64,000 nucleotides of DNA from an uncultured Hormoscilla sp. (GTDB lineage: Bacteria; Cyanobacteriota; Cyanobacteriia; Cyanobacteriales; Desertifilaceae), in the NCBI GenBank assembly GCA_963921275.4, contig OZ001293.3, forward strand, positions 2,880,001 to 2,944,000. Reading direction: 5' to 3'. The position numbers and the translations under genes are program-made. This document shows, one piece after another, positions 1 to 63,991 of this stretch. Position 1 is the first letter of the stretch. Each line of letters starts with the position of its first letter. The notes beneath the pieces were generated by a model, which saw only the letters and a list, made by a program, of their open reading frames with translations, searched no databases and was not told the DNA's origin.

Positions 1-451
1 CTGCCAATCAGGTTGCCGGTCGATCGCCCGGGTCAAAGCTAGCTCCTCATCTGTCCCAACTCACTCAACACCACCGCCCGCTGATACCAGGCCCAGTAAT
101 TCTCGGGTTCCAACTCGAGGGAGCGGTCGTAGTCGGACAGAGGTAATGCCAGGCCCTTCCCAGGCGGTACCAGGCCCAGTAATCATCTGGTCTTAACTCC
201 AAAGCTTGTTTATAAGACGCGACCGCCTCCGAGTACCGTCCTAAGCTCAACAGGGCACTGCCTCGGTTATACCAGGCCCAGTAGTCCGACGGTTGAGACT
301 CCAATACCTTGTCGTAATGGGCGAGGGCCTCCGAGTAGTTAGTCTCCGCATCTAAGTCTCGCCCCCGATCGGACCAACTCCAGTAATTCTCCGGTCTAGT
401 CTCCTGTGAAGCCCGATTTTTCTGAAGTTCGCCTGGCCTGTCAGAATTCAT
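1..451 (-). pseudogene. TPR-repeat protein, frameshifted near 137, runs off window start
   Basis: Repeated YWAWYNRG/YDKVLE/YKQALELRPDDYWAW TPR motifs; TPR text continues in another frame; likely start ATG 451. Confidence 0.75.
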
Positions 452-606
452 CAGCAACCCCTCCCTACAACAGTTTTCCGCCGCTCGTTTATCTGCACCT
501 GGCACCGCCATCCTTCGACTACCCGAGGGATCTGGGGAGGGCAGATGAAATCGGGCCTGCAAATATAGTATACTTTTAGCGATAGCTTTTCACAAAGGAG
601 TCAAGC

Positions 607-1173
607 ATGGCAGACCTCAAGGCTAAGGTCACTCTCCAGAAAAAGGGCGACGAAGCATACATTTCCGTCAAGCAACTGATGGTGACCTTGAAATGGACCA
701 AAGATGTCGATCTGGATTTGATGGCTTTCTATAAAGCCAAGGACTCACGGACTGGCGGTGTCTTCTCCGACAACTACCCAGGCGGTTCCATGGGAAGCCT
801 CAACGAGTTTCCCTTCATTCAACTGAGCGGCGATGCCGGAGTTGGAGCTAAGGGCGGCGACAACGAGGAGATTTTGAGAATCACCAAGCTGGACGACTTG
901 GCGGAACTCTACATTTGCACCTTAAACTACACGGACGCTAGTGAGAAGAAAGACGCCTCCTTCGGCAATTATGATGGTGGCATTGTCGTCATCGATGATA
1001 AAGGCGAGTCTGTTGCCGTTCCTTTGGACTCCACGGAATCGGGTCACGTGGCTGTTATTGCCAAGATTGACAATACAGGTCCCATGGGTGCCAAGTTGAT
1101 CAACGAAAACCGGATTGTCACATTGGAGACTTTCTTCAGCGATATTCCCGGCGCTAATAAACTCGCGGGTTAA
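607..1173 (+). CDS. TerD-like stress protein (divergent subfamily)
   Basis: LKW..DVDLDLMAFY, QLSGDAGVG..GGDNEE motifs; AAGGAG RBS; paralogs downstream. Confidence 0.8.
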   Translation: MADLKAKVTLQKKGDEAYISVKQLMVTLKWTKDVDLDLMAFYKAKDSRTGGVFSDNYPGGSMGSLNEFPFIQLSGDAGVGAKGGDNEEILRITKLDDLAELYICTLNYTDASEKKDASFGNYDGGIVVIDDKGESVAVPLDSTESGHVAVIAKIDNTGPMGAKLINENRIVTLETFFSDIPGANKLAG

Positions 1174-1248
1174 AGCTAGTCCCCGTTCCTGTTGCCCTTC
1201 CCCTGCTCTCACGGGGAGGGCAAGATCGCGTTAAAGTTAAGGTGCCTA

Positions 1249-2277
1249 ATGAGCTCTCAAATCACTACCTATCATCTGCAACGAGAAAATAATCCCCGTC
1301 GCCAAACAGCTCTCAGCTTTCCTTTCCTGGGCCAGTTAGGATTAACTTCCGAACCCGATTTGCTCGCCTGTAGAAAACACTTACAAGTGCTGCTGCGGTC
1401 AGCGGCATGCCAAAAGCCGATATCGGGAGAGCCTTTAATTATTGGCTTAGCTGAATCGGGAATTATCCCCTCTGGTCTGATGCATCAAGTGGTCAGAGAA
1501 CGGCAGATCTCCGCAGGCTGGATCTGTTCTACCCGCAGGCGGGCTTCTGGGATTCGCTTTATGGAAAGCCATTCCCACAGTCCCTATCATATCCTACCTC
1601 TGCCCCAATTTCAACCCACTCAATTATGGTTCGTAGAAGATGAAATTACTACAGGTCGGACTATCTTAAATTTAGCCCTGCATCTGTGCTCCCTGCTACA
1701 AGTTCGCCAGATGAGATTCTTCACCATCGCCGATAGCCGCAGCCCTGCCCAAATTGCCCAGTTTGAGTCCATTCTTGCCGAGCGCGACATCCAGTTCTCT
1801 ACCCATACTTTAATTCGTTTACCTCCCGATCGCCAATATCTCGCCCAAGACTTACTGCCTCAAGATATTATCATTAGTGAGGATCTGATTGTCAAAGAGC
1901 GAGATAAAATTCAGAGCCAATGGCACTTGTCTGGGCAACGAGCAGCCCGGCAAACACAATGGCATATAGTGCCGGATTTACCAAACAATCTGGAAGGTTC
2001 CCTTTTGGCGATCGGGGAGGCGATCGATTTAGCCTGGAGAATGGTGCGGGGGAATCCCAAATTATCCTTTCAGCATATCACCCTCAATCCCTGGCGCGTT
2101 GATGGCATCAATATTCAGCATCGCTTAGATATTTGTGATAAATATTATCTCTATAACTACAAGCACCTGAAGTCCCCCATCTACCTCCTCTATGACCCCC
2201 AGGACCGGGCGATCGCCTCAGGGGCTAAAAAAAAATTATCCCAAGCAGGATTTACCGTCAATAATTTGATCTTCTAG
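1249..2277 (+). CDS. Ter-cluster phosphoribosyltransferase-domain protein
   Basis: IIGLAESG, FMESHSH and WFVEDEITTGRT PRPP-binding motif; Ter context. Confidence 0.8.
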   Translation: MSSQITTYHLQRENNPRRQTALSFPFLGQLGLTSEPDLLACRKHLQVLLRSAACQKPISGEPLIIGLAESGIIPSGLMHQVVRERQISAGWICSTRRRASGIRFMESHSHSPYHILPLPQFQPTQLWFVEDEITTGRTILNLALHLCSLLQVRQMRFFTIADSRSPAQIAQFESILAERDIQFSTHTLIRLPPDRQYLAQDLLPQDIIISEDLIVKERDKIQSQWHLSGQRAARQTQWHIVPDLPNNLEGSLLAIGEAIDLAWRMVRGNPKLSFQHITLNPWRVDGINIQHRLDICDKYYLYNYKHLKSPIYLLYDPQDRAIASGAKKKLSQAGFTVNNLIF

Positions 2278-2283
2278 AAAAAC

Positions 2284-3276
2284 ATGGAATTTCTAACAAA
2301 TTTGGACAGAAAAAATCTTTGGAATCAACCGGTATACGCCCAGTTTCTGGCGGAAATTGACCCCTTTAGAGACTTTCAATATTTTCGGAAATATTTTGCT
2401 TATGATGGCCAGAATACCTTTTGGTCAAAACCTTGCCCAGAACCAAACCTGGAGGACGAGTTTTGGCAATTGGTACTCTCAAAACTAGCAGATGAAAAAT
2501 TGCAACTGGCTGCTACTCGCCTCGCTGCTGCTATTATCGCTACAGCCCCCGATCCTAGCAAGTTACTCTTTGTAGCTATTTTAAGAGGCGGTGTCCCGAT
2601 CGCAGATTGGCTTTGTCGCCTACTACCGGGATCGGTGGCGGTGGCCTTATCTCTATTTGTGGGCATAGGCATCGATCGAGTGGCTTTGCAAAACGTGCGA
2701 TCGCATTATCCCGATCGGCAAATCATCTTTGTTGACGGTTGGACTGGTAAAGGTGGCGTAGCCAGAGAATTATCAAAACTGGGACATTGTTCCGGAAAAA
2801 TCGGACCCCTAGCAGTTTTAATTGACCCTTGGGGCTGGGCAGATTTTTCTGGTGCAGTTGACGATCTATTCTGTCCCACAGCTTGTTTCACTGGCGTCGC
2901 TACTCTCGGCTTTTCTAGTGGCTTCTATGTAGACGATCGCCGTTTATTTGCCTCGTACCTATTTCCCGAAGCCTATTGTCGCCCCCAATTAGTTACAACC
3001 TGGCAGAACTCTTGCCCTCAATTGCCATCAACAACGCCACCAGAGAAGCAACGCTTTTGGTTAGAAACAGACTTGAGAATACATAGCAATGAAGTTTGCC
3101 GTGGCTTAATGAATGCCAATCCGGATACCCTCTATTTTGCCGACGATCGCATCTACGTTCGAGAACATTATAGCCTGATATTGGCTTTAGCCGAGCGGCG
3201 GCGTGTAAACATTGTCTATAATGCCAAGCATTTAGCAGATTACCGAACCCGCGTTGCCTGCTCCTTTCAGAAATGA
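2284..3276 (+). CDS. StiP-like (cysteine protease/PRTase-like) Ter-associated protein
   Basis: LRGGVP, GIGID, IIFVDGWTGKGG motifs. Confidence 0.75.
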   Translation: MEFLTNLDRKNLWNQPVYAQFLAEIDPFRDFQYFRKYFAYDGQNTFWSKPCPEPNLEDEFWQLVLSKLADEKLQLAATRLAAAIIATAPDPSKLLFVAILRGGVPIADWLCRLLPGSVAVALSLFVGIGIDRVALQNVRSHYPDRQIIFVDGWTGKGGVARELSKLGHCSGKIGPLAVLIDPWGWADFSGAVDDLFCPTACFTGVATLGFSSGFYVDDRRLFASYLFPEAYCRPQLVTTWQNSCPQLPSTTPPEKQRFWLETDLRIHSNEVCRGLMNANPDTLYFADDRIYVREHYSLILALAERRRVNIVYNAKHLADYRTRVACSFQK

Positions 3277-3372
3277 CTGGTATTGGGGAAGGGTCGCCTC
3301 AAAAGGTTGCAATTAACCATCAAGCATCTTAAGTTATGCTATAATCGAGTCAGTAGCGTAGGAAAAAGAGAT

Positions 3373-4152
3373 ATGTCTCAGTCAGTAGCGCCTGCGAAAA
3401 CCATGACATTTGAGGAATATCGGTTCTACCAGGGAGAACCGAATGTTCTGTACGAGCTATTCCGAGGACATTTGATACCAATGGCAACGCCAACATCTCT
3501 GCATACCAGAATCTGCAATTTTCTCGCCTATATCTTCTGGCGTCATTTTGCCAGTCAAAATCTAGCATTAATTGCCACAGATTTTACTGGAGTCAGAACA
3601 GAAGCGGATTCATCTCGCATTCCAGATGTGGTAGTTTGCTCTGCCGAACTCTGGGAGCAATGCTGTGCCAGACCGGGTGCTGGTATTCTGGACTTTGGGG
3701 AAGTGCCAACTCTAGTAGTTGAAGTCACTAGCGAAAATTGGCGGGAAGATTATGTCCGCAAACGGGCTGAATATGCCTCGCTCGATATTCTCGAATATTG
3801 GATAGTAGACCCGAACAAGGAGCAAGTATGGATTTTGAGTAATCCTGAAGGTCAGCGTGGTTACGATCGGGTAGAATATACAAGAGGGCAATCCTTCAGG
3901 TCTGTGCAGTTTTCCCAACTGGTTTTATCAGTTAATACAGTCCTTGCTCCTCCAGTGGTGGAGGATTTAATCAGGGAAGAGCAAGCACAACTGCGACAGG
4001 TTGAACAACAGAGAGATGAAGAGCGACAACGGGTCGATCGGGAGCGACAACGGGCAGATCGGGAGCGACAACGGGCAGATCGGGAGCGACAACGAGCAGA
4101 ACAATTGGCTGCTAAATTAAAGGAAATGGGATTAGACCCAGATACGATCTAG
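3373..4152 (+). CDS. Uma2 family endonuclease with coiled-coil tail, copy 1
   Basis: PDVVV, LVVEVTS, EYWIVDP; 21-nt ERQRADR tail repeats; GLDPDTI end. Confidence 0.9.
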   Translation: MSQSVAPAKTMTFEEYRFYQGEPNVLYELFRGHLIPMATPTSLHTRICNFLAYIFWRHFASQNLALIATDFTGVRTEADSSRIPDVVVCSAELWEQCCARPGAGILDFGEVPTLVVEVTSENWREDYVRKRAEYASLDILEYWIVDPNKEQVWILSNPEGQRGYDRVEYTRGQSFRSVQFSQLVLSVNTVLAPPVVEDLIREEQAQLRQVEQQRDEERQRVDRERQRADRERQRADRERQRAEQLAAKLKEMGLDPDTI

Positions 4153-4453
4153 AACCTAAGGGAAGGAGTGGGGTGCATCTCAATGCAAGAATCAAGAAAC
4201 CCGGTAATTCCGGCAAAACCTGATTTCTGGGCAAAAGAGTGAATATACCCGCCGCAAAAGTGAGATACTCCCGAAGGAGTTCTCTGTAGCGCTGCGCATA
4301 ATACGGAGTTCGGAGTTATATCCGAACCCGCATTACTCGATTCTTTCAGAAATGACTGATAATTAAGTAAACGATCGCCTCAAAAGGTTGCAATTAACCA
4401 TCAAGCATCTTAAGTTATGCTATAATCGAGTCAGTAGCGTAAAAAAAAGAGAT

Positions 4454-5338
4454 ATGTCTCAGTCAGTAGCGCCTGCGAAAACCATGACATTTGAGGAATA
4501 TCAGTTCTACCAGGGAGAACCGAATGTTCTGTACGAGCTATTCCGAGGACATTTGATACCAATGGCAACGCCAACATCTCTGCATGCCAGAATCTGCAAT
4601 TTTCTCGCCTATATCTTCTGGCGTCATTTTGCCAGTCAAAATCTAGCATTAATTGCCACAGATTTTACTGGAGTCAGAACAGAAGCGGATTCATCTCGTA
4701 TTCCAGATGTGGTAGTTTGCTCTGCCGAACTCTGGGAGCAATGCTGTGCCAGACCGGGTGCTGGTATTCTGGACTTTGGGGAAGTGCCAACTCTAGTAGT
4801 TGAAGTCACTAGCGAAAATTGGCGGGAAGATTATGTCCGCAAACGAGCTGAATATGCCTCGGTCGATATTCCCGAATATTGGATAGTAGACCCGAACAAG
4901 GAGCAAGTATGGATTTTGAGTAATCCTGAAGGTCAGCGTGGTTACGATCGGGTAGAATATACAAGAGGGCAATCCTTCAAGTCTGTGCAGTTTCCCCAAC
5001 TGGTTTTATCAGTTAATACAGTGCTTGCGCCTCCAGTGGTGGAGGATTTAATCAGGGAAGAACAAGCACAACTGCAACAGGTTGAACAAGAGAGAGAGCA
5101 AGAGCGACAACGGGCCGAGCAGGAGCGACAACGGGCAGAAGAAAAGCAACAACTCGCCGAGCAGGAGCGACAACGGGCCGAACAGGAGCGACAACGGGCA
5201 GATCGGGAGCGACAACGGGCAGATCGGGAGCGACAACGGGCAGAAGAAAAGCAACAACTCGCCGAGCAGGAGCGACAACGGGCCGAACAATTGGCTGCTA
5301 AATTACAGGAAATGGGATTAGACCCAGATACAATCTAG
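4454..5338 (+). CDS. Uma2 family endonuclease, tandem duplicate with longer tail
   Basis: Near-identical to 3373..4152; more 21-nt tail units. Confidence 0.9.
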   Translation: MSQSVAPAKTMTFEEYQFYQGEPNVLYELFRGHLIPMATPTSLHARICNFLAYIFWRHFASQNLALIATDFTGVRTEADSSRIPDVVVCSAELWEQCCARPGAGILDFGEVPTLVVEVTSENWREDYVRKRAEYASVDIPEYWIVDPNKEQVWILSNPEGQRGYDRVEYTRGQSFKSVQFPQLVLSVNTVLAPPVVEDLIREEQAQLQQVEQEREQERQRAEQERQRAEEKQQLAEQERQRAEQERQRADRERQRADRERQRAEEKQQLAEQERQRAEQLAAKLQEMGLDPDTI

Positions 5339-22050: not shown

Positions 22051-22228
22051 AGTCTATCTTATCGGAATGGAAATTGCAATCGTTCGCTATAACAGCCTTT
22101 TCTGGAGCCCAGGCCGAGCAGCCTCTTTTGATCTACATTGTACCGATTTTTGTCCGGAACAAAATGGAGTAGTTTTATAGATGTCCGTTAGCATTGTTTT
22201 GCTCTAAATTTGTTGATTTTGGACTGAC

Positions 22229-22841: not shown

Positions 22842-22977
22842 CTCCTCTTTTTTCTATTCAGTCTAGTTTCTACTCGCTGCTCAATTCGGTCAGCCTCGAT
22901 CGCCCCTTGTTCGGTAGTCACAGGGCGGGCAGCGCCCACCCTACTACAGCACCTGAGCAGCCATCATTTCTTTTTTT

Positions 22978-23300: not shown

Positions 23301-23557
23301 GTATAAGCAGTCAGCATTTCCTTTGCTAATTATGGCGATCGCCTGTTCGCGCTTAACACACTGAGGTTTGTAGTGAGGACGGAAGTCCTCACTACAAACC
23401 TCAGAAAAATCGGAAAATGGTCTAAAAACTCATCCAGTGAATCACCCCCTTCGAGATAATCAAGCAATATTTTCATTGGTACCCGCGTGCCAACAAAAAC
23501 TGGTGTTCCTCCCATTATATCTGGGTCGCTATGGACGATAGGTGATGTATGCTTCAT
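23290..23557 (-). pseudogene. DUF433 antitoxin frameshifted by a 50-nt hairpin insertion (23361-23410)
   Basis: DPDIMGGTPVFVGTRVP..FLDHFP; removing the insert restores CVKREQAIA. Confidence 0.8.
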
Positions 23558-24355: not shown

Positions 24356-25847
<1,492 letters not shown>

Positions 25848-26065: not shown

Positions 26066-26248
26066 ATGACAATCCTGTTAGAAATCGAAGCGGCCATCAA
26101 ACAGTTGCCCGAACCGTTCCGGAAAAATCGGGATGTTCGCCAGTTGGCAGCATGGTTACAGACCTATTTAGACGAGCGGTGGGATCTGCAGATGCAGGAC
26201 GACGCCGAAGTAGACATCGCCGCTAACCAAGTGAGAGAGTTGCCTTAA
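26066..26248 (+). CDS. Small antitoxin-like protein with a 15-nt in-frame insertion; possibly internally deleted
   Basis: EIEAAIKQLP..WDLQM; insert 26114-26128. Confidence 0.55.
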   Translation: MTILLEIEAAIKQLPEPFRKNRDVRQLAAWLQTYLDERWDLQMQDDAEVDIAANQVRELP

Positions 26249-30323: not shown

Positions 30324-30427
30324 GCACCTGAAAATAGTTCGATCGTGGCGGACTTTAGTCCTTATCTCGCGAAGTCGCAGGTGAGGACTTTAGTCCTCAC
30401 TACAAACCTCAGAAAAACATGAAGGGG

Positions 30428-32983: not shown

Positions 32984-33286
32984 ATGTTTCAATTGTTATA
33001 TTTTATACTACATGCCCTGGATCCGTTTCTGGTTCCGATTTGCTTTGTCTGTGCCTGGATGTTAGTGCTGATGGTAGCTTGGAGTCTCTGGAGGGCCGTG
33101 CGATCGGGGGTTGCGATTTTTCGCGCAGCGTGGGCCCAGATGATGCACCAGATCCCCTGTACCGGCTGTCAGTTTTTCACCAATGATTACCGGCTCAAAT
33201 GTACGGTGCGGCCTCAAATTGCCAATACCGAGAGGGCGATCGCCTGTTCTGACTATTCTGCCAAACAGAATCCTTTCAGTCTATAG
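32984..33286 (+). CDS. Conserved cyanobacterial membrane/Cys-motif protein with a 15-nt in-frame insertion
   Basis: PICF..AW, MHQIPC..C.FFT.DYRLKCTV.P..A.TE.AI.C. Confidence 0.8.
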   Translation: MFQLLYFILHALDPFLVPICFVCAWMLVLMVAWSLWRAVRSGVAIFRAAWAQMMHQIPCTGCQFFTNDYRLKCTVRPQIANTERAIACSDYSAKQNPFSL

Positions 33287-34481: not shown

Positions 34482-35216
34482 TTAATGAGATGCTCCCGTT
34501 TCTTGAGTATAGAGCGATCGCCCGCACGGTCCGCGGACGGCCCGAAAAATCGGGGTAGCCAAGTCCGGTCTACCAACCTCGCACAGGGCCCGATCGCGAA
34601 TGCGGCAAGAGTCGCAGGCCCCACAGGGAAGTTCTTCGCCCTGATAGCAAGAGTAAGTCTCTTGAATGGGAACCCCCAACTGCAAGGCGCGACGGACGAT
34701 ATCCGCTTTAGAATCTTTAACTAAGGGGGCAACCAATTTAGGGGCCTTGCCTTCCAGTCCCACTTGAGATGATAAATTAGCCAACTGACCGAAAGCTGCC
34801 AAATATTCCGGGCGACAGTCAGGATAGCCAGAATAGTCTACCGCATTAATGCCCAGATAGATAGCTGACGCCCCCTTTGCTTCCGCCAGGGAAAGGGCGA
34901 TCGCGATAAAGACGGTATTGCGTCCGGGCACATAGGTAATAGGAATTATCCCTGGTTTGACGCCATCAGTAGGTACGGAAACATTTCGGTCGGTGAGGGC
35001 CGAACCTCCCCACTGGGATAAATTAACATCTATGATATAATGTTCGGCAAGGTGCAACTCTTTGGCAATAGTTTGGGCAGCCTCTAGTTCCCGATCGTGC
35101 CGTTGCCCGTAACGAAAGGATATAGCTATAGTTTGGTAGCCATCGGCAATAGCTTGGGCCGCAGCGGTGGAGGAGTCCAGTCCGCCAGACAGGAGGGCGA
35201 TCGCCTTTTCGTTCAT
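34482..35216 (-). CDS. queC: 7-cyano-7-deazaguanine synthase (24-nt insertion near C-terminus)
   Basis: LSGGLDS, YVPGRN, YPDCR, CY..CG.CDSC. Confidence 0.95.
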
Positions 35217-46905: not shown

Positions 46906-47065
46906 GCGTCTCGCCCGCCCCAGAGGGAGAGGGTCTGCGGCGTCTTCCGCTCCAGACACCGAGCTCTTGTCCTGAAGGACTCGGCATGCTCCAGACACCT
47001 TCAACGCCTGGAGCATGCTCTTGTCCTGAAAGACGCGGCATGCTCCAGGCGTTGCCCTATCAATG

Positions 47066-47905
47066 CTACATCAATTGGTCGGGGTCAAGGTCGAGCGAGC
47101 GCAGATATTCTGCTAGCCGTTCGGCCCGTTGCCGTTCCCGTTCCAGCTCCAGCTCCTGCTGTGCCTGCTCAGCCCGTTGTCGTGCCTGCTCAGCCCATTG
47201 TCGTGCCTGCTCGGCCCGTTGCCGTTCGCTCTCAGCCCGTTGCCGTGCCTGCTCAGCAAACTCATCACTGGTCAGATATCTTCTTCCCTCTTGGTCGTAC
47301 CAATACACCCATTCCCTGCTCCTGCCTCGATATTTTCCCAGTTCCGTTCCTATTCCCAAGCCTATTTCTGGCAACCAGATGGGATTTCCTGACAGCAGTA
47401 TGTATGGTCCCCTTCTAACTTATACACTTCCAAAGGTTGATGGTCTGCATGGCGACTCCTTCGCCCCCGTCTTCCACTAGCGCTGGGACGGCAAAATGGA
47501 TTGTATATCACATAGTACAATGGCCCTAGTTCGGCATAATCTTCCATTTTTTGTCATACTCGCCCCCGTAAGTTTTGGATGCCACTTCCATCACCAAAAT
47601 TGGCACTATTCCCCTTTCTTCCCACACCAAGTAGCTGAGGCGCAGTTTTGTTGATTTTATCCGCTGTACTCCTATACTGAGAAATCCATCTGGGACTGGG
47701 GCTGGCTTTTCGGGGTGATAGTATATTCCCATATCTACTCCCCAAATCTAGTCATCTCGTTGGGCCCAGATCGGGATGATATCACGTTAGCAGCGTTGGG
47801 GATTAGGTTTTGCAATTCGTTGTCCACGGGCGTATCGTCTGAGTCGGGTAATTCTTCTGCTGTTGGCAGGCGTAATGTGGGAACGTATGACAGAAACTTC
47901 TTGAT
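47066..47905 (-). pseudogene. Uma2 family gene, frameshifted duplicate of 48024..49232
   Basis: Split over four ORFs. Confidence 0.85.
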
Positions 47906-48023
47906 GTCTAGTAGGTGGCAGTATACGCTTACATTCTTGAGCTGTGAGTATATTATCAATAGAACCCAGCCGGATGGGAGGTTGATTATGAGCCTATCCC
48001 ACAGCAGGAGCTATCCATCCATT

Positions 48024-49232
48024 TTAGATCAATTGGTCGGGGTCGATGTTTTGCGATCGCAGATATTCTGCCAGCCGTTCGGCCCGTTGCCGAGCTTGCT
48101 GAGCCCGTTGCCGTTCTTGTTCTACCTCCTGCTGAGCCTGCTGAGCCCGTTGCCGTTCTTGTTCCACCTCCCGCCGAGCCTGCTGAGCCCGTTGCCGTTC
48201 TTGTTCCACCTCCTGCTGAGCCCGTTGCCGTTCTTGTTCCACCTCCTGCTGAGCCCGTTGCCGTTCTTGTTCCACCTCCTGCTGAGCCCGTTGCCGTTCT
48301 TGTTCCACCTCCTGCTGAGCCTGCTGAGCCCGTTGCCGTTCTTGTTCCACCTCCCGCCGAACCTGCCGAGCCCGTTGCCGTTCTTGTTCCACCTCCTGCT
48401 GAGCCTGCTGAGCCCGTTGCCGTTCTTGTTCCACCTCCTGCTGAGCCTGCTGAGCCCGTTGTCGTTCTTGTTCCACCTCCTGCTGAGCCCGTTGTCGTTC
48501 TTGTTCCACCTCCTGCTGAGCCCGTTGTCGTTCCTGCTGTGCCCGTTGCCGTTCGAGCTCAGCCCGTTGTCCTTCGGTCTCAGCAAACTCATCACTGGTC
48601 AGATATCTCCTGCCCTCTTGGTCGTACCAATACACCCATTCCCTGCTCCTGCCTCGATATCTTCCCAGTCCTGTTTTTATTCCCAAGCCTATTTCTGGCA
48701 ACCAGATGGGATTTCCTGACAGCAGTATGTATTGGTCCCCTTCTAACTTATATACCTCCAAAGGTTGATGGTCTGCATGGCGACTCCTTCGCCCCCGTCT
48801 TCCACTAGCGAGCGGACGGCAAAATGGATTGTATATTACATAGTACAATGCCCCTAGTTCGGCATAATCTTCCATTTTTTTGTCATACTCGCCCCCGTAG
48901 GTTTTGGAGACCACTTCCATGACCAAAATTGGCACTATTCCCTTTTCTTCCCACACCACGTAGCTGAGGCGCAGTGCTGTTGATTTTATCCGCTGTACCC
49001 CGATACTGAGAAATCCATCGGGGACTAGGGCCGGTTTTTCGGGGTGATAGTATATTCCCATATCTACTCCCCAAAACCAGTCATCCCGTTGGGCCCAGAT
49101 CCGGGATAAGATATCGTCAGCGGCGTTGGGGATTAGGTTTTGCAGTTCGTTGTCCACGGGCGTGTCGTCTGAGTCGGGTAATTCTTCTGCCGTTGGTAGG
49201 CGTAATGTTGGATCGTATGACAGAATTTTCAT
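48024..49232 (-). CDS. Uma2 family endonuclease with long repetitive coiled-coil tail
   Basis: LPDSDDTPVDNELQ, PDGFLS; about 11 33/42-nt QERQRAQQ(AQQ)EVE units. Confidence 0.9.
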   Translation of the reverse strand: MKILSYDPTLRLPTAEELPDSDDTPVDNELQNLIPNAADDILSRIWAQRDDWFWGVDMGIYYHPEKPALVPDGFLSIGVQRIKSTALRLSYVVWEEKGIVPILVMEVVSKTYGGEYDKKMEDYAELGALYYVIYNPFCRPLASGRRGRRSRHADHQPLEVYKLEGDQYILLSGNPIWLPEIGLGIKTGLGRYRGRSREWVYWYDQEGRRYLTSDEFAETEGQRAELERQRAQQERQRAQQEVEQERQRAQQEVEQERQRAQQAQQEVEQERQRAQQAQQEVEQERQRARQVRREVEQERQRAQQAQQEVEQERQRAQQEVEQERQRAQQEVEQERQRAQQEVEQERQRAQQARREVEQERQRAQQAQQEVEQERQRAQQARQRAERLAEYLRSQNIDPDQLI

Positions 49233-49606
49233 GATGTCTAGGAAGTTGGGTGGCAATATCCTTACTATATCAGCAATCTTGCTTCGATGTGCGATGCGCA
49301 GTGCGAATAGCGCGCGCAGAGTACATCGAAGTGGGGCGCTCTCAAGCATGCAAATGTACGGGGTAGCCGTTACCTCCACCGGTGCAGCAGCTTGAGCCCG
49401 CCCAGGCGGGCTTAGTCAATGTAGCGATACCCTTGAGGGTATCGCGGCGCTAATTGTTCGTGTTAACTATTGAACAGTTTGCATCCATAACCTCTGGTGC
49501 ATCTGTTAATGTTGGTGGCAGTGGGGGCTGAGTGTAATCAATATGTACGTCCAGCCCTAAATATCCTTCCTCTGTATGGGTCTATATTAATGGTAAATTA
49601 GATTGA

Positions 49607-49772: not shown

Positions 49773-51623
49773 TTACTCAAATGCTGGATAGATATCGTTT
49801 TCAAAGATATCCTTAATCCAACCAGGCAAGAAGGAATACTTGGGATCGTAAACGTTAAGATCCGATCGCAGGTCTACTTTGTAAGTAGATGTTCGGGGAG
49901 CTATTTCCGGTATCCAAGCCGCGTGCAGGGGAAAAGCAAACTTGACCTCGGGATGCCGCAGTTTGGCAACGGGACCGGCAGCCAGATTTCCCGCCTGCCA
50001 AATCCAGAATTCCGAATATTCTGGGGTGGAGACCATAGCCACCAGATAACCTTCTAACTCATTATTCTGACCGAGCTTGGGAAAGTAAACCGTAGTGGTA
50101 ACGCAGGTTCCCCGAGGGGCAGCCCAGAAATCCTTTACTTCCATATCCCCAGGGGACCATCGCATCACCCCCGCTTCTTTCCATCGGGGTAGATCCTCTA
50201 TGGGAACTTCTCGGAACTCGTGGTGTTCGTACAGTTTCACCAAACGCCTGGGAGTAATTTCGCTGATGTAGCCAGTGAAATTCACCCAAAAATTTGCAAA
50301 CTCTGGGGGACTGGTTTCTTGAATGCCATTATAAGTAGGAAGGGCAATCCCCCAGAAGCGATCGGACAACTGGTATTTGCTGCTCTTTATTTCCCCCGTC
50401 TGGGCGTTGACCACGTATTTGCCGAATCCTTGCTGGTCGTAAACTCCCGGAGGCGAGCCATGGAAAGGCGCGCTTACCCAGTCATCAAATGTCGGCCAGC
50501 TCGCGTCCCATCGCCGGTTCCATTCACTCACATCGTGTCCGGAAGCATGCAATAAATGCAAGGTGACATCATCGTTGTCATCGTCATAGTTGGCAAAGAA
50601 GTGAACGCACTCCCGGGGGATCTCGACGTATTTGGCCCAAGCAGTAGCTATCTCTTCTTTTCCATCATTGAGCTGCGCTCTGGGCACAAACCAGACTTGG
50701 TTGTATGGGGACTGGGGCTTCGCTGGAGCACCGGGAATCATTATCCGATAATATTCCATGGTAAATGCCGTGTCAATGATGATGATATAATTGCGCGTGA
50801 CGGCAATTTGATGGGTTGACTGTTTAATTACCACTGGCTCTTTGGTGCGATCGTCGATAATCCGAGTAGTCTTAAATTTCCCGGTGCCATCCCAAACCTG
50901 TATGTAGGCATCGGGTTGAATGCTGCCTAGGGCAATGGGAATTTCAAAAATCGTATTGATGATGAAAATTTACCCGGTGCGATCGTCGTAAGCAGGATGA
51001 GCGGCGCTCATGTGCATGGGAAAGATCCAGGGAAACTTGATGTGCGGGATATTCGGGATGCCGTCAATCTCCATTTTCATCCACTCGGAGCGCTGGCCCA
51101 CCGGCGTGACGGGAGCGAAGGTGGTCGGATCGAAATCAAACGGACGGCCCGAGTCAATGGTAGCCATCATCCGCCAAGAACCATTGTCTGGGTCTTGAAA
51201 GGCTTGAAGGCCAGTATGACATTGGTTCTGCACTCCTAGGAACAGGTTAAGACGCGCCAAACCCATCTTGTTGCTAAACCGATAAGCCCTTCTCCAGAAC
51301 TTCCAGAAGGACTGCTCTTGAATTTTCAGATCGCAGATGATGGACGGTGTATGAAAAGGTCCGCTTTTTAGATGCACCCGATTTTTCGGGCCGTCCGCGG
51401 ACCGATCGCCTTTAAAGTCTAAGCGATACAACTGCCTGTAGCCATTAAACCAAGGGGTATCTCCCGCTTGGGGTGTAGGCACCATCCAAAATGCGTGTCC
51501 CGCCATGTCCGTAGGTATGGACCCCTCAATTGTATTGAGGTCCAGGTCGAGAAGTGCCGTGTTTTGGTAGCGGATGTGGGTGGGAAAATCGGGAGGACTC
51601 ATAAATTTAGCCTGCCAAAGCAA
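49773..51623 (-). pseudogene. Carotenoid oxygenase (RPE65) family gene with one in-frame TAA (50970-50972)
   Basis: Both ORFs in the same frame; four His (AHP, THQ, VHF, LHA); 24-nt insert 51381-51404. Confidence 0.75.
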
Positions 51624-53022: not shown

Positions 53023-53277
<255 letters not shown>

Positions 53278-53420: not shown

Positions 53421-53598
53421 CTTTTTTCTATTTTTTCGGAAAGTAGTGCGAGTTCTTCGTAGGGTGAGCACCCCTCACCAGAATGTAGTATTTTTTTACC
53501 AACTAATGCAAGACCACACTCGTCGTCATCTGACTGGCGGACCCCAGGGGATCCCGGGGAAACTCCGCATCATTACATAGATCAGCAGGCCCAGATGG

Positions 53599-53734
53599 TA
53601 TATGCTGAGAGGCAAATCATATATGCTGAGAGGCAAATCATATATGCTGAGAGGCAAATCATATATGCTAAGAGGCAAATCATATATGCTGAGAGGCAAA
53701 TCATATATGCTGAGAGGCAAATCATATATGCTGA
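53599..53734 (+). repeat. 21-bp tandem repeat x about 6 (ATATGCTGAGAGGCAAATCAT)
   Basis: Direct reading. Confidence 0.95.
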
Positions 53735-54058
53735 TTTCTGGAAATACTCGTGCAGTTCTTGCACCTTGAGTAGATCGAGTATGTGGTGCGCTACTGAGGT
53801 TTGTCACTACAAACCTCAGAAAAATCGGTCACCCAATCTTGCTGTAGCAACAGGTCTGCTAAATAGAGATAGGTATGTGCTAACAGTTCTAGTGTAAGAT
53901 TGCTGCTGTTGCAGGGATAGCACCTCCTGATGGCAAAACGTTGGTAGGGTGGGCAATGCCCACCTTGTCAATTGTGGGTTGTTGGTTGTCAGTTGCTATC
54001 GCTGATAAAGACTAAAGTCCTTACTACGAACCTCTGATCTATAGGCCCAGTCCCATTC

Positions 54059-56825: not shown

Positions 56826-59739
56826 TTAGAACACTTCCAGATCGAAAGGGACGAAACTTCCATTCAACTCGTCTGGTGCCACCCGGTTAACCATGCCTAA
56901 AATCAGATTGGAGTCGGCAATTGTGATCATAGTATTGGTGCCCAATGATTCTAGAATTATATCATCTGAAGTTAATCCACCCGTTAGCCCGATCGCATCT
57001 TCTGCCACCTGAAAGTCCACGAGGACATCAACTTGCGATCTGTTAACCACTGCTGCCTCAGGGGACAGGACGAAAATATCACTGCCCGGACCGCCCAGGA
57101 GAATATCTTGACCAGATCCGCCATTGATAGTATCGTCTCCTGCACCGCCCTGGATGAAGTCATTTCCTCGACCTCCAAGGAGTTCGTCATCGCCCATACC
57201 GCCAGTCAGGCTGTCGGCACCGGGACCAGCAAAGATAATATCATCCCCTGACATGCTATCGATCGTATCGTCCCCGCCAAAGGAGATAATTAGATCGTTC
57301 TCAGGGGTGCCCATCAGCATATCGTCCCCTGGGTTCCCTCGGATCAGATTTACAAACTCCGGTGGCGGTTTTACATCACCACCGGAAATGAAGAATTGGG
57401 CCTCTTCCCAAACCGCCTCGCCCACGTTGCGCCCGAGGATTAATCCCTCTTCGTTCCCAGCAAAATTATGAATCCCACCATAGAGGCAAGAGATCCCCGA
57501 CGATGTTGCTGCATCGGAAAAGGTATCCCAACTCAGAGTCACCGGTTCGGCGGGCGTGATTCCCGGTTCAAACAAAGACTCTCCAGCAGGTGCCGTCACC
57601 GAAGCCCCAAATTGATCGCTACCTGTAAACCGCTGGAGAACTTCCGCCGCAGCGCTGCTGAAGGCACTGTGTCCCGATACATATTCAGCCAAGGGAGGAG
57701 TGGGACTTTCCAAGCGCTGGTAAGGGATAAATTCCGATCCATCTAGTTCGACAGTGCCCTGTCCCGGACCGCCCCAAGCTTCGATAGTTTGACCGCCAAA
57801 CAGAGCCTCGATCGCCGTGATCGGACGCACGTAATCATAGAATACTTTTGCTTCCCAGGCCACAATCCCCGCATCCATGACAGCGTTACCCAACATGAAG
57901 AACATCTTGGCGTCTTCATCCAGGGTGTTATCGTCCCGTTCGGAAACGAACTGGCCAAAACCCATCCAGGTACCGGGAGGAAAGGATGATCCCGGTCCAT
58001 CTTCCCAGAACTCCGCAACAATTTTGCGCTCGTCGTTGAGGTTGGCGCTGATCTCGATAACTTCCTCATGCAGCGTCAGGAACTCCTCGCTGCCAAACTC
58101 CGGCGGTGCTGGGGGTCGGAATTGGTCCCCTGATTCTAGTCCAAAGGGAATCACTTCGCCCCACTGAGGGGTGAGGAACTGTTGGACTGTGCCATCTGGG
58201 TCGCGCAAAGGTTGCAGCAGGGGTTGCCAGCGGTTCGGATCGACGATCTCCTCTCCCTGGGGAGGATTTACTGGCTCGTAACCCGTATAGTCGGAGTAGG
58301 GCAGACCATCATTTGGATGGGGTCGAGCCGGGAATCGCTTCCCGACCCTCCCTTGAGGAACCGGACTTGCGATTTTCACCGCATCCGGCTACTGGGTACT
58401 AGGCCCTTTTCATAGGTAGACTTAATAGGAATTACTTCCGTTAGCCCTTGCCGCCTGTCTTTTCTTCCCTTTCCTGGTTTAGCGAGTGGTTGTTCTGATA
58501 ACCGTTAGTATCACCATTTTCAAGTCAGTTTTACCAGTTATCCATACCTTATCCTCCACTTGCGTTTCGGATTAGTTCCGTGGCTTTTTAGGATTACTCA
58601 TTCCAGCAGCTTCCTAGTATCACCGACCCACGTCAGCACTGGCTACCCAGCATCATCTACATTACTGTAGATGTTATCCCAGGAATTACCCCGGGCATTC
58701 GCTTCTTGGGCCATCCCTCCCCCCGTGGCTTGCGCTTAACATCTAACTTGTCCTGATGGACAGCACACGAGAGGTTACTTCGTTCCCTAACAACATTTCG
58801 CGATACCTTTAGGTCCACACTATACCCCGGGAGCTATTTGAGTACTATATTAGCCAGAGTCTAAAACTAATACTAGCTACCATTTCCTTTTTAGGCCAGC
58901 GCATATAGCCTTATTTCGCTGGTTCCTTATAACGAGGCTTGCACATGTTTGCCTGCTCTAACCTTGGATATCTTTCCTAGCGGCGTCACCGGCTTAGGCT
59001 GCCAGTTATCCTACATTTGAGTCCTCGCTTAGCACCACGATGATGTCGCTTCGTAGCACCGAGGACCGGTGTCACCCCCGTACCTGGGGGGAGGGGAATT
59101 TAACCCCCATGCGGTCAGAGTTCCCGGCTAATGAAACCGGGCTAGCGTTCCGTGTTTGACCACGTTAGGCTAGAACGAATCGCACAGATCCCCTAACTGG
59201 TTGGAACCGTCGTTGCGGCGAAAGTCGAGTAATGCCTGGGCCGAGACATTGCCAATGCCTGCGGGGGTAGAGTTGTTGTCTGGGTCTAGGCCCAGTTGTT
59301 CCATGAGGCTATCGAACAAATCTACCTCTGTGGGAAACAGGTCTTCCAGCACCCGATAGGCCGCATAACTCATGGCCTCGGTTTTGTTTTCCAGGGTATT
59401 TTCCTCGGCGGGCCGTTGCAGGTCGTCACCCAACTGGGTGCCGATGGCCTCTGGGTCGTATGCTGCCCAGGCATCGAAGATCGCCGTATGCACCATCCCG
59501 TAGGCGCGGGAGGCGATCGTCGGTCCTACACCTAAATTGCGGACTGCTTGCTGTGCCGCCTCATCCCACAAAACCGAGGGCGTTATCTCTTCGGTCGCAT
59601 CAGTCAGGGTCCTGTCGGGGTTGAGCCAAAAAATCCCTATGGGTTCCCCGTCCACTTCGCCGAAGGAGACGGGACTGATACCAACACCGTTTATCCATCC
59701 TAGGCCGTCATTGGTGAGTTCTATTTCGATCGGATCCAT
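56826..59739 (-). CDS. Vanadium haloperoxidase-like/PAP2 protein with RTX Ca-binding repeats, interrupted by a group II intron; may be a pseudogene
   Basis: GPTIASRA, DGSNQLG | YSDYTGY, K..YDYVRP, EYVSGHS, YGGIH; GGxGxD repeats. Confidence 0.8.
58317..59185 (-). mobile_element. ORF-less group II intron (about 869 nt)
   Basis: 5' GTGCGATTCG; domain V AGCCGGATGCGGTGAAAATCGCAAGTCCGGTT; domain VI with bulged A 7 nt from the ..CCCCAT end; no RT ORF. Confidence 0.92.
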
Positions 59740-59800: not shown

Positions 59801-60859
59801 TTAGCCATTACCTCCAATGGTCAATATGCGGCGAATTTCATCAGTTTTGAAGCCGATCGCCATTGGCCGACGCACCCCTGGCAAGATTGCCACGTCATAC
59901 AATTCCTCTACTACACCTTCTATCCGCAACCAATGTACGATATCCCCTGTGCGCAGGTCAATAACTAACAGTCCGCAGCGGGGTTCGGCATCTCTAGTGG
60001 AGAGGTTTTCATCTAAAGGCAGGCTCGAAAATGTCTTGTTATTTCTCGGTTTAGATATGCCCACCACTGCAAAGTTACGGCTAAAGGCACAGCCCCGCAA
60101 GTATCCCGGACAGAATGTCACCGCTTCAAAGGTTAAACTCTTCAGGTCTGCATAACCAAAGAAACCCGTACCCGAGTTTAACAGCCACAGTTTCTTCTGA
60201 TGCCAGCGGGGCGAGTGGGGCATGGAAAGCCCGGTAACGATCGCCTCATTGCTGCTGACATCTATGACGCATCCCCCGGAAACCCTGCGATCGCGCCACC
60301 CATCAGCTACATCACTTTGACTGACAGCAGTAACGTATTTTGCCTGACCATTTTGCATAGCTAAGCCATTCAGGTGACATCTATCTTCAGCAGCAAGTCG
60401 GGAAATAAAAGGTGGTTGCCAGAGGGGAATAAAACTATGCTCTTCACTTACGGTCGCCAGACAGCCAAATAATGTATTGACAAATATAATCTTTCCTGTT
60501 TTATCTACAGCCACATCATGAACATCCAAGTCCCCAGTAATGTAACCGACTTGGGGCACGAGCAAGCAGTCATAACCATTATGAACCTGTCCGGGTTGCA
60601 GTGCATTTTGAAATCGCCACAGTTGATACAGTACGCTCATGTAAAGCCTGGAACTATCTGCTCACAAGCCCATACATCGCTCGAAAGTGCGTTCAAATAC
60701 TGATAGTCGCCCGTCTGGTTGCAAACCGATCAGAAACAGTTTACCTGCTTGATAGGTGGTGAAGGCCAGACTGATGTTTTGCTCCCCTAACCAGGCGGTA
60801 AACTGGCGGGAACAGTTAATTTCTAGGGATGGAATTGAGGTTGGTTGTGGTTGTGTCAC
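59801..60859 (-). pseudogene. TIGR03032 family protein, frameshift near 60660
   Basis: SLAFTTYQAGKL, FERCMGL, EDRCHLNGLA, MPHSPRW. Confidence 0.85.
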
Positions 60860-60987
60860 TTCAGTTGGTTTGCGTTCTACTAAGGATTATTATAACACAA
60901 ATGTGCGCGGATTCGCTGTTAGCCCGCTGGGGATTCTCAACTTTGAACGGTATATTGTATAATGGAGATGTCGTTGTTTCTGAATGC

Positions 60988-61640: not shown

Positions 61641-62117
61641 ATATTGAAGACTAAAATCAACTCAGAGATTTGATGCGAAAATATGTCGGATCAGAAACCA
61701 GGTTTATTCGAGAAATATGGTTTATAAATCTGCGGTTGATTTATCCAGAATATGAGTGCGATCGCCATTATCGCGTCTCAATCCTATATTTTTCTAGGTA
61801 ACAATTTTATCAGATAACAAACTGATAAAATTCAGATTTTAATCTCGAGCATAAAAAGATATCAAAATCCTTGACAATTACAATTTAAACTATCTATATT
61901 TAAAATGGCAATTCTAAAAATGAGAAAACTCCAATGCCCGAGACAAAACGATCAAATAACCGCCCCCATTCGGGGGCTGCTCCTAACTGAAAATCGCCGG
62001 TTGATTGCTGGCCGGAGATCGGGTATTGGAGACTCTTTTTTCTAACCGGTTGGCTAAGCGGTCAAAAAATTATGGCGCACAGAGATCCAGGCGATCGGGT
62101 TGGATATTTGCTGATTT

Positions 62118-62154
62118 AAAAAGCCCGGTTTCTCCTGCGAAACCGGGCTTTTTC
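62118..62154. terminator. Bidirectional intrinsic terminator-like hairpin
   Basis: AAAAAGCCCGGTTTC-TCCTGC-GAAACCGGGCTTTTT. Confidence 0.7.
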
Positions 62155-62734
62155 CTATGGAACTTCGATATAGTATAAGGTAACCCATAATTGGGCGATC
62201 GCCCTAAAAAGATCTACTGATTCACGAGCACTCTGCGCCCGCGAGACCAGCTAAGAAAGCCAGTTTTTTGTCAAAACTGGCTTTCTGGGGTACTGGGGAG
62301 ATACCCTCAATACTTCTCGGTTAAGCAATAAATTCGGAGTGGGGAGTGGCTTACAGGGGTATGTTTTTTAGATTTCGGTCAATACTTCAAGGTTTTGCAT
62401 TTTATTTGTCATTGCGAGGGGGGGGAGGTTGATTGTCACTACCCTTTGGCCCAGATCCCATCCAGTTTGTAACTTGAGGTAATTTTCTGCGAAAAAGTTG
62501 AGCTTTGGACCGATACCTCTGTAGAAGGAGCTCACGGGGTCTTGTTGGAACCGGTTGCTTCCCTGAGGTTGAGTTCAAATATTTCGTGGAGATTTTCTAT
62601 GTCAGGCAAATACGTGAAAAAGCTGGCGATCGGAGCGGACTGGAACCGGAAGTTGAAGATGGGTGCAGCTCATTTGTAGTTGCATTAGTAGAGCAATTTT
62701 AGACTCTGGTCGGTATTTGTGCCTACCGGCTTAT

Positions 62735-63991
62735 TCATCGGGGAAAAGTTGGCAAGTCAATTGCGGCCAGGGACTTAATCTTCTTGTGGGGACGGAGGGG
62801 ATAAACTAGAGGAGAGGGGGACTTTGTAGAGGAAAGCAGGGACAACGTCTCGGCATCCACCGTGCCGGAAAAATCGGAACCCCCCTCTGAGGCTTGCTCT
62901 TCGCTTTGGTGGCTTTCTTGCTGCTCAAAGATAGATGCAACGTCGGAAAGTGAGTCCTCTGGAGTTTGCTCATTCCCTATGCTTGAAGAGTTATCTACTG
63001 CTGCTACTGTCTCATCAGTCAAGTCCTCACCAACTTCAGAATACTCATCCTCTAATTGTTCCGAGACCGAAGCCATTACCGATAACTCATTTTCAGGGGA
63101 AGCGAGTTCCTCTGAGACTGCGGACTCTGATACCCCAAGGGTTTCTCTGGGTCGATCCTGCTGTGAGACGGGGGCGCGAACGCTGCGCGAAAAATCGACA
63201 GTAGGAGTATCGGCAGATATCTGCCAGTAGTCAGGCTCACCCCAAGCCTGCCCAGGTACTGCATCCGACTCTTCTGGATCGAGATATAATTCAAGTTCTG
63301 CTAATTCAGATGCTGCTGACCAGGGTTGAATTGCTGGCGCTTTCGGGACAACTCCCTGTACGATCGCTCTGGTATCTGTTTCCTGTTGAGTGCTCCGACC
63401 CACCGTTCCGGAAAAATTAGCCGGTTGTTCCGGACCCGTCATCTCCAGGCATTTGTCCAGGGCATTTTTGAATTGCAGGGTGTAGCGTTGCTGCCGGTAC
63501 AGACGCGATCGCAAATCCCGGCAAATCGTTTCCGCTTGGGAAAGCTTAGTTGTCTGTTCCTCGTAGCGTTGCTGAGTAAGAGCACAATCTCGTTCCAACT
63601 GGGCCACTTGTTGTTGGTTAGTTTCCAACTGCCCGCGGAGTGTTTCTATGAGAATTTGTTGGCGAACCGTTCCGGAAAAATCGGAAGTTTGCTGGCCAAG
63701 TTCCTTTTCCTGCTGCACCTGAGAGTGCTGTTTTTTCAAGCTATGCAGTTCTGCGGACTGCTCGGAGAGTTTGGCCTCTTGAGCTTGACAATGCTCCTGA
63801 TATAGCTGCAATTGCCTTTGAGCAACTGCCAGTTCTGATTCTAACTGCATTACCCGATCGATCAAATCCGTGTTTGACTCTACCCGTACTTCTGCCGATG
63901 TCTGGTCGGTGTCTCCGGAGTAGTGCGAGTAGCGCTCTCCGGAGACACCGAAGATGTCTACCGTTCCGGAAAAATCGGGGTTTTCGCGCAC
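62735..63991 (-). CDS. Cyanobacterial coiled-coil protein carrying six in-frame micro-insertions; 5' end may lie outside the window
   Basis: RQQILIETL, LERDCA, LRSRL.RQQR.TLQFK.AL.KCL; C-terminal SPSP..YP.RP.K..KSLAAIDLP.F. Confidence 0.8.
   Translation of the reverse strand: MRENPDFSGTVDIFGVSGERYSHYSGDTDQTSAEVRVESNTDLIDRVMQLESELAVAQRQLQLYQEHCQAQEAKLSEQSAELHSLKKQHSQVQQEKELGQQTSDFSGTVRQQILIETLRGQLETNQQQVAQLERDCALTQQRYEEQTTKLSQAETICRDLRSRLYRQQRYTLQFKNALDKCLEMTGPEQPANFSGTVGRSTQQETDTRAIVQGVVPKAPAIQPWSAASELAELELYLDPEESDAVPGQAWGEPDYWQISADTPTVDFSRSVRAPVSQQDRPRETLGVSESAVSEELASPENELSVMASVSEQLEDEYSEVGEDLTDETVAAVDNSSSIGNEQTPEDSLSDVASIFEQQESHQSEEQASEGGSDFSGTVDAETLSLLSSTKSPSPLVYPLRPHKKIKSLAAIDLPTFPR

Follow-up and report, generated by a model that had tools for sequence, protein, structure and literature searches.

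Micro-insertions of 12 to 50 nucleotides in Hormoscilla genes, a probable family of ultra-small mobile DNA

The window considered here, the whole stretch of DNA that was analysed, is 64,000 nucleotides (nt) long and comes from an uncultured Hormoscilla sp., a cyanobacterium of the sponge-symbiont type (contig OZ001293.3 of assembly GCA_963921275.4, positions 2,880,001 to 2,944,000). Its open reading frames (ORFs), 148 of which were compared with Pfam, include genes for a TPR protein, a StiP-like protein, QueC, DUF433 proteins and a coiled-coil protein of 490 amino acids (aa), and set into these and some other places is a very short DNA unit with a run of five T (T5) at its left end. The original prediction, made from the letters alone, had listed 14 copies of this unit, and all 14 were found where it had placed them, with the sequences and flanks that it had given. 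The copies, with a partial relative, are listed below with corrected boundaries, by window coordinates and strand; ^ marks a point of insertion.

417..428, plus: 12-nt unit (T5, CTGAAG, T), the shortest long-hairpin member, in a TPR protein gene (65-451, minus), N-terminal part; read LQKN; empty site CGA^TCG.
2786..2800, minus: degenerate 15-nt CCG-GAA-CGG unit (CAA for CGG) in a StiP-like gene (2284-3276, plus); read HCSGK.
23360..23409, minus: 50-nt unit, T5, perfect 20-bp stem (loop TTCC) and T; frameshifts a DUF433 gene.
26113..26127, minus: 15-nt CCG-GAA-CGG unit, antisense in a 60-aa ORF (26066-26248, plus) upstream of a ParE-family gene; read PFRKN; presumed empty site CGA^TCG.
30381..30417, minus: partial long-hairpin relative (T5 and left arm, then a TAAA loop and 8 nt of right arm), intergenic; membership uncertain.
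33117..33131, plus: 15-nt CGC-GCA-GCG unit in the gene of a conserved 100-aa membrane protein (32984-33286, plus); read IFRAA.
34526..34549, minus: 24-nt unit in queC (34482-35216, minus), C-terminal tail; read FRAVRGPC after a native Ile.
51382..51405, plus: 24-nt unit with the hairpin of 34526..34549, antisense in a split RPE65-like gene, N-terminal fragment; presumed empty site CGA^TCG.
53136..53159, plus: 24-nt unit related to the other two (differing in 4 of 18 hairpin bases), after CTGA, in an intact DUF433 gene (53026-53277, plus); read DFSGRTRTV.
53793..53824, minus: 32-nt unit, the long hairpin without its tip (11-bp stem, loop AGTG), in non-coding DNA.
62859..62873, minus: 15-nt loop variant CCG-GCA-CGG, site C of the 490-aa coiled-coil gene; read (D)FSGTV.
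63180..63194, minus: 15-nt CGC-GCA-GCG unit, site D of the same gene; read (D)FSRSV; CGA^TCG.
63402..63416, minus: 15-nt unit, site B of the same gene; read (N)FSGTV; flank now CTAA.
63666..63680, minus: 15-nt unit, site A of the same gene; read (D)FSGTV; CGA^TCG.
63960..63974, minus: 15-nt unit, site E of the same gene, nested in a 52-residue stretch unique to the window genome.

Anatomy of the unit and its target

The bare word ATTTTTC is barely enriched in the window: it occurs 29 times when 19.3 occurrences are expected, and one of 100 shuffles reaches this number. The word CGATTTTTC is strongly enriched, with 13 occurrences against 1.04 expected and none of 100 shuffles reaching 13, so that the motif exceeds chance. 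Twelve of these 13 matches are copies in the list. The other one, at 25182-25190 (look-alike 25184), is ordinary thiC coding sequence (VKNR) and not a copy; since a single chance match is expected, the thiC match accounts for it. A second look-alike, at 2843 (DFSGAV, native ADFSG), was also rejected, the peptide being invariant in 14 of 14 aligned StiP rows. Four of the 14 copies lie on the plus strand of the window and ten on the minus strand, five of the latter within a single gene.

Each unit is composed of T5, a short inverted repeat with C as its first base and G as its last (stem 3 to 20 bp), and a final T. Among the 15-nt units of the window, the CCG-GAA-CGG family comprises six, of which four are exact copies, one differs in the loop and one is degenerate, and the CGC-GCA-GCG family comprises two copies. 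The 24-nt form occurs as two copies with identical hairpins and the one that differs from them, while the long-hairpin family is a series of 50, 32 and 12 nt sharing the same ends, with a core that has GTAG at its start and CTAC at its end, like GTAG-tagged REPs (repetitive extragenic palindromes). The original prediction had seen in the 15-mers GNA-triloop hairpins with covarying stems. The complementarity stands, because both 15-nt families remain complementary although two of the three stem pairs differ on both sides, and this suggests that structure counts for more than sequence in these units. What does not stand for the 15-mers is folding above the level of shuffled sequences: only the 50-nt copy (-23.5 kcal/mol, z -10.1) and the 32-nt copy (z -7.3) fold better than their shuffles, and in the short units the 'hairpin' amounts to complementarity between the 2-3 bases that follow the T-run and the final 2-3 bases.

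The copies are 12, 15 (eight copies), 24 (three copies), 32 and 50 nt long. Twelve of the 14 lengths are multiples of three, and the two others, 50 and 32 nt, lie in a broken gene and in non-coding DNA, respectively, which agrees both with what had been said of lengths in intact ORFs and with the claim that the 50-nt copy frameshifts its host. The 15-mer and the 24-mer are free of stop codons in all six frames. From this follows an explanation for the persistence of the units in genes: their abundant forms, of 15 or 24 nt, are simply translated, as DFSGTV, IFPER, PFRKN, HRSGK and so forth.

Where a unit begins and ends was decided from seven sites for which an empty ortholog has been observed, mostly at the level of protein. 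The stretch was deleted either with the boundaries of the original prediction or with boundaries shifted by one base (T5, hairpin and T after CGA), and the predicted peptide was compared with the empty one. The former boundaries are off by one base and give the empty peptide at none of the seven sites; the shifted ones give it exactly at four (the TPR site and sites A, C and D). They fit also a fifth, site B, if the Asn codon AAT of the window has been derived from the Asp codon GAT, and among the four other filled orthologs the residue at this flank is Asp in three, which implies CTGA, and Asn in P0125. The proposed target CG^T is thereby refuted. The unit is inserted without target duplication, directly 3' of a native C(C/T)GA, and the residue ahead of the insert, an Asp or Glu that follows Ser or Pro, likewise belongs to the native protein. 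Insertion at TCC GA^G accounts for the frequent change of Glu to Asp followed by FSGTV.

A target logo was built on 31 sites, 14 from the window and 17 from other Hormoscilla sequences. Position -4 is C in 29 of the 31, position -3 is C in 26 and T in five, and position -2 is G in 30; to the right, +1 is G in 16, A in 10, T in five and never C, while +3 is G in 21. CCGA makes up 28% of the NCGA words of the window but accounts for 10 of the 12 NCGA sites used, whereas GCGA makes up 31% of the words and one of the 12 sites. The orientation is fixed as well, in that the T-run side faces CCGA and not GCGA. That CG is absent before two of the copies (53136..53159 and 63402..63416) had been remarked in the original prediction and is correct.

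Six of the 14 window copies, with queC counted from its orthologs, split CGA^TCG, a HIP1-like core. CGATCG is hyper-abundant in the genome, with 142 sites in the window, and from this follows that many copies split the centre of this palindrome. Such figures might lead one to dispense with a dedicated enzyme altogether and to let the units arise by template switching, or microhomology copying, between CGA...T(CG) flanks at HIP1-like sites where hairpins stall the replication fork. The six copies in CGA^TCG would then have microhomology on both sides, and the SDR5 repeat of Nostocaceae, one of the small dispersed repeats (SDRs), is likewise tied to HIP1 (PMC4390886). Yet TCG is missing on the right at eight of the 14 window sites and present at none of the 17 Hormoscilla sites, so that right-hand homology is not needed. 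Canonical HIP1, which would offer the GCGA side, is avoided, none of its 44 sites (GCGATCGC) in the window being occupied, and a homology of four bases would not yield such clean and identical junctions. Template switching is therefore quite improbable.

Filled and empty sites in orthologous genes

The evidence for insertion comes from orthologs of the host genes. For StiP 13 of 120 listed homologs were aligned, for QueC nine of 120, and for the 100-aa membrane protein nine of 150. The StiP site is empty in 10 of the 13 homologs, namely P0003 (GUM202), P0006 (GM7CHS1pb) and all eight from outside Hormoscilla; HCSGK is present in the window, P0002 and P0005, and the copy in P0004 is two residues shorter. 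All nine aligned QueC homologs, including that of Hormoscilla GM102CHS1 (96% identity), read ATPI-GRSLY with a gap of eight residues; the empty site ATP^CGRSLY of the original prediction was thus wrong, the orthologs having ATPIGRSLY. Five residues of the 100-aa membrane protein are absent in 9/9 aligned representatives, while protein P0515 of Hormoscilla SP5CHS1/SP12CHS1 carries the insert found at 33117..33131, which makes this an older copy. In the TPR protein, the GUM202 fragment P0517 has RPGDRASQ where the window has RPGELQKNRASQ; four residues are absent in P0517, and removal of 417-428 predicts exactly GDRA.

The DUF433 genes add two cases. In the intact gene at 53026-53277, 64 residues span 56 positions of the Pfam profile, and there is a gap of eight residues relative to the solved structure 2ga1 at the insert; a DNA alignment of two intact DUF433 paralogs was tried, and they are too divergent to serve as empty sites. 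Removal of the 50-nt copy reopens the reading frame of its host. A paralog at 21780-22100, 95-98% identical, is without the 50-nt unit and without 7 nt of flank. The two belong to a segmental duplication (20900-22100 and 22600-23820, 95-98% identity) that contains two DUF433 genes, and the copy at 21871-22053 is frameshifted and has a gap of 57 nt, which equals the 50-nt unit and 7 nt of left flank; here the long palindrome may have been lost imprecisely. A cluster look-up returned the 60-aa ORF at 26066-26248 as a singleton without relatives, and DUF433 was likewise without relatives there; an exact match to the RPE65-like fragment was absent from the collection.

The richest source of comparisons is the 490-aa coiled-coil protein, whose last 421 residues are encoded in the window and whose gene contains five of the window copies. 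Six Hormoscilla sequences, the window's included, were aligned with six outgroups, that is with 11 sequences besides the window's, and at least nine separate sites are filled in some lineages and empty in others. The state of the sites is as follows.

Site A: filled in the window, P0124 and P0125; empty (TSD^RQQ) in P0123, P0126 (GUM202), P0127 and 6/6 outgroups.
Site B: filled in the window and P0124-P0127; empty (PAE^GRST) in P0123 and P0128.
Site C: filled in the window and P0124-P0126; empty (GSE^DA) in P0123, P0127 and P0128; removal predicts GSEDA exactly.
Site D: filled in the window; empty (TVD^RA) in P0123 and P0127; in P0124 an insert of 10 residues occupies that place.
Site F: filled in P0124 and P0125; empty in the other aligned sequences, the window's included.
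Site G (NAARK, reverse orientation): filled in P0124-P0126; empty in the others, the window's included.
Site H: a longer insert, DFSRSGG..., in P0124-P0126.
Site I: filled in P0124-P0126; empty in the others, the window's included.
Site J (TLREK, reverse orientation): filled in P0127; empty in the others, the window's included.

A gene tree was calculated from 346 columns, without the inserts and their neighbours, for eight rows, the four most distant being excluded. On this tree most sites require one change, and sites A and F require two, although at site F a single change may suffice once an open three-way fork is resolved. Since site A needs two changes, at least one site has either lost a unit seamlessly or taken one up more than once at the identical position. 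Site E stands somewhat apart. It lies in a stretch of 52 residues (63840-64000, minus, continuing past the end of the window; alignment columns 54-105) that is absent in 11/11 other aligned sequences and that also holds a separate inverted repeat with a 13-bp stem; the stretch looks like a nested insertion.

The alignments for StiP, QueC, the 100-aa membrane protein, the TPR protein and the 490-aa protein confirm that the copies are genuine micro-insertions with fixed ends and variable payload, as the original prediction had proposed. The insertions are of different ages, some being common to several Hormoscilla species and others lineage-specific.

A proposal without any insertion, in which DFSGTV is a selected peptide motif or a by-product of composition, can be judged at this point. 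DFSGTV is present five times in one protein, and StiP has a native, conserved ADFSG. However, the same DNA is elsewhere read IFPER, FFRNG, PFRKN, HRSGK and TVPEKS, also antisense, and the use of several reading frames and both strands marks a DNA element and not a selected peptide. The copies share identical codons, as seen in the four exact 15-mers, the residues are cleanly absent in orthologs, and the observed count was reached by 0/100 shuffles. For practical purposes, the frame and strand data have already refuted the peptide motif.

Other genomes, other systems and the rest of the window

Genomes were scanned with the 15-mer, and the figures given here hold among the matches listed (at least 116 loci). 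The 15-mer was found at 16 or more loci in four Hormoscilla assemblies, and in 16/16 it is preceded by C(C/T)G and followed by T. Outside Hormoscilla, 101 matches were listed in 100 loci, each from an unrelated taxon, and four of the 101 have this context. In the Hormoscilla loci the 15-mer is read DFSGTV, IFPER, PFRKN, TVPEKS, HRSGK and so forth in long open frames and on either strand, and one of the loci (L019, from GM7CHS1pb) carries the identical 24-nt unit. A tblastn search of the window ORFs against the 16 Hormoscilla loci gave no orthologous host gene; locus L077, which has an 11-base right flank in common with the queC copy, is not queC. The proteins of the window are closest to those of Hormoscilla metagenome-assembled genomes: StiP is 94% identical to that of GUM202, QueC 96% to that of GM102CHS1, and the 490-aa protein 90-91% to those of SP5CHS1, GM7CHS1pb and GUM202.

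These counts bear on the proposal that the units are remnants or footprints of a larger transposon that targets CCGA and has T5...T termini. The long-hairpin copies of 50, 32 and 12 nt do form a deletion series with the same ends, and the DUF433 paralog has suffered its imprecise 57-nt loss. But independent deletions would not converge on one exact 15-mer at four window sites and at least 16 Hormoscilla loci, and a longer element with these ends was not seen in the window. The proposal is very improbable.

A second dispersed repeat, about 45 nt long and with two small hairpins, is present at 36845-36890, at 28586-28625 and in Hormoscilla locus L096, where it adjoins a 15-nt unit. Part of it was scored as CRISPR-DR28 by Rfam (36.6 bits, single copy), and it appears translated as PTLKGGATGTKPACAGS-like inserts in the StiP orthologs P0004 and P0006.

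The closest known relatives, going by description, are the SDRs of Nostocaceae, of which the Hormoscilla family would be a shorter variant in a different order. SDR4, SDR5 and SDR6 are also very small, dispersed and apparently mobile repeats of HIP1-rich cyanobacteria with no enzyme known, and SDRs too have filled and empty orthologous sites between related genomes. The range of 21-27 nt that Elhai et al. are said to have reported in 2008 for SDR families would include only the three 24-nt copies, whereas the commonest Hormoscilla unit has 15 nt and the shortest 12. The claim that the units are shorter than the SDRs holds also in comparison with SDR5, of 21 nt (PMC13756078). SDR5 enters HIP1 after its third base (PMC4390886), within one base of CGA^TCG here and at the very position which the boundaries of the original prediction would give. 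Unlike SDR5, the Hormoscilla units have CCGA as their primary target and leave canonical HIP1 unused in the window, and unlike the SDRs of Nostocaceae they belong to a genus placed in Gomontiellales, not in Nostocales. In 150 kb of the Nostoc punctiforme plasmid pNPUN01, searches by k-mers and for interrupted HIP1 sites gave only heptamer tandem repeats and TPR-gene repeats. BLAST of the 50-nt copy against plasmids gave two weak Nostoc matches (E 0.4), which are GTAG-type hairpins without the T5/CCGA context.

Other small elements resemble the units in part. Insertion sequences (ISs) of the IS200/IS605 type depend on hairpins, have a fixed target word of 4-5 nt, make no duplication and excise seamlessly. 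Some of these properties are stated in PMC6006769. The Hormoscilla units share with them insertion 3' of a fixed short word without target duplication, C(C/T)GA being found in 29-31 of the 31 sites; there is one inverted repeat per unit, with a 2-3 bp stem in the short ones, and in IS200/IS605 and the system of REPs and REP-associated tyrosine transposases (RAYTs) the transposase recognizes a hairpin or hairpins near the ends. REPs are hairpins of 20-40 bp with a fixed 5' tag, some of them inside genes, and GTAG-tagged REPs have been described for cyanobacteria (PMC3733652); the long hairpin with its GTAG...CTAC core is similar to these. In contrast to REP/RAYT, the units are 12-50 nt long with a single hairpin and a T5 tag in place of GTAG, and mostly intragenic and in-frame. 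Rickettsia palindromic elements are roughly ten times longer and belong to a different phylum, and we know of no CCGA-type target for them. Like the present units, they are palindromic repeats that lie in-frame in coding genes and are translated (PMC3733652). Miniature inverted-repeat transposable elements (MITEs) such as the cyanobacterial Nezha are non-autonomous, structured and dispersed, with filled and empty sites in relatives (PMC3184786), and in all this the units are alike; they differ in having T5 and T as ends, without terminal inverted repeats that match a parent IS, and in showing duplication at no site with an empty ortholog. A literature search did not find the Hormoscilla family described, nor a paper on DFSGTV, and a search by terms found nothing on such repeats or on transposases in the Hormoscilla genome paper (PMC6520454).

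As to the remainder of the window, a match to group II introns (RF00029, 58317-58393, minus, 44.4 bits) lies between the ORFs 56826-58379 and 59170-59739. These are the halves of a split vanadium-haloperoxidase-like gene (a VCPO_2nd/RTX part and a DUF6851 part), which suggests that an ORF-less group II intron interrupts it. Other genes look split or truncated, too: RPE65-like (49773-51623, two ORFs), DUF4915 (59801-60886, two ORFs) and a HATPase_c fragment (17142-17444), and this fits gene decay in a symbiont-type genome. Between 600 and 14150 there are seven paralogous ORFs with a common repeat of about 300 nt and no Pfam match, amid genes for TerB, vWA-TerF-like, PRTase and StiP proteins; this is a tellurite-type stress or conflict island. 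Four genes of the Uma2 family, putative restriction endonucleases, lie at 3283-4152, 4388-5338, 29069-29887 and 48024-49379, with a fragment at 47529-47747; two of them are 98% identical over 300 nt, and the family occurs also on a Nostoc plasmid. A 21-nt tandem array (53571-53738) adjoins the 32-nt unit, and long runs of periodic repeats of 21, 33 and 42 nt fill 47111-48578 inside the ORFs 46986-47480 and 48024-49379. A thiamine pyrophosphate (TPP) riboswitch (25755-25853, minus, 70 bits) is situated directly upstream of thiC, as expected.

Movement of the units

The reading best in accordance with these data is that the copies are an ultra-small, non-coding, non-autonomous family of mobile DNA of the genus Hormoscilla, with a probability of roughly three in four. 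In bacteria, it seems, no mobile DNA as small as these units has been described before. They would be moved in trans by an enzyme encoded elsewhere, which would recognize the fixed T-run, the shape of the hairpin and the CCGA target, but not the sequence of the hairpin.

Several points weigh against this reading. The empty-site prediction for queC is off by one base (S predicted, I observed), and removal of the StiP copy predicts LGLG where the two empty Hormoscilla orthologs have LEIG and the outgroups LGLQ. The LEIG reading and the shortened copy in P0004 could be substitutions or the footprint of imprecise removal. Position -1 of the logo (A in 31/31) was predetermined by the way in which copies were found, one 24-nt copy (51382..51405) has a terminal A in place of T, and the partial copy at 30381-30417 follows TCATG and not CCGA. 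The 12-, 15- and 24-nt copies fold no better than shuffles (z -2.0 to +1.0). The homoplasy argument comes from a tree of one gene, on which the key branch, uniting the window with P0124-P0126, has a support of 82/87. Finally, when the 148 window ORFs were compared with Pfam, at E<=0.01 for 15 of them, E<=1e-5 for 59 and E<=1e-3 for 74, there was no match to a transposase, reverse transcriptase, HUH or recombinase family. That no enzyme is visible in the window had been said before, and in this respect the units differ from REP/RAYT and IS200/IS605, a cognate transposase not being found among these ORFs.

If the units are mobile DNA, a single-strand 'peel and paste' reaction by a tyrosine transposase of the HUH type, by analogy with IS200/IS605 and REP/RAYT, is the favoured though tentative candidate for the way in which they would move, being the process that the pattern resembles most, with the odds still somewhat against it, since known substrates are larger and have two hairpins. 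Known IS200/IS605 elements are far larger than the units and need a hairpin at each end, and we know of no substrate with a single 3-bp stem.

Alternatively, the units could be retro-insertions, in which a nuclease nicks the DNA after CCGA and a reverse transcriptase, for instance that of a group II intron, extends the nicked 3' end along a tiny hairpin RNA ending in five A, so that T5, hairpin and T would be written there. The T-run always lies at the left junction, which is conserved, and the right one is loose, as expected of target-primed reverse transcription on an A-tailed template, and the group II intron remnant in the window means that such retroelements live in this genome. Against this, every copy has exactly five T and there are few discrete payload families, which fits a copied element better; there is neither target duplication nor deletion; a reverse transcriptase gene was not found among the 148 window ORFs; and an Rfam gathering scan of the window gave three unrelated matches only and no such small RNA. 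Retro-insertion is thus rather improbable.

Returning to mobile DNA units moved in trans, one may consider a stronger version, in which units of 12-15 nt are the smallest self-propagating DNA, any hairpin between T5 and T can be made mobile, and seamless removal is also possible. This version is doubtful. Seamless removal would explain the exact empty site A in GUM202, the enzyme would be a natural tool for writing short in-frame peptide tags and erasing them again, and the same machinery may move the unexplained SDRs of Nostocaceae. How cyanobacterial repeats of about 20 nt move has been an open question since 2008, and the Hormoscilla family offers a clean handle on it: an exact unit, a four-base target, no duplication, swappable hairpins and many filled/empty differences, which makes the search for the enzyme tractable by comparative genomics and biochemistry. 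Mobile DNA can remodel proteins in steps of five residues, and one protein has gained at least nine inserts across lineages. Protein annotation and alignment in Hormoscilla should allow for such inserts.

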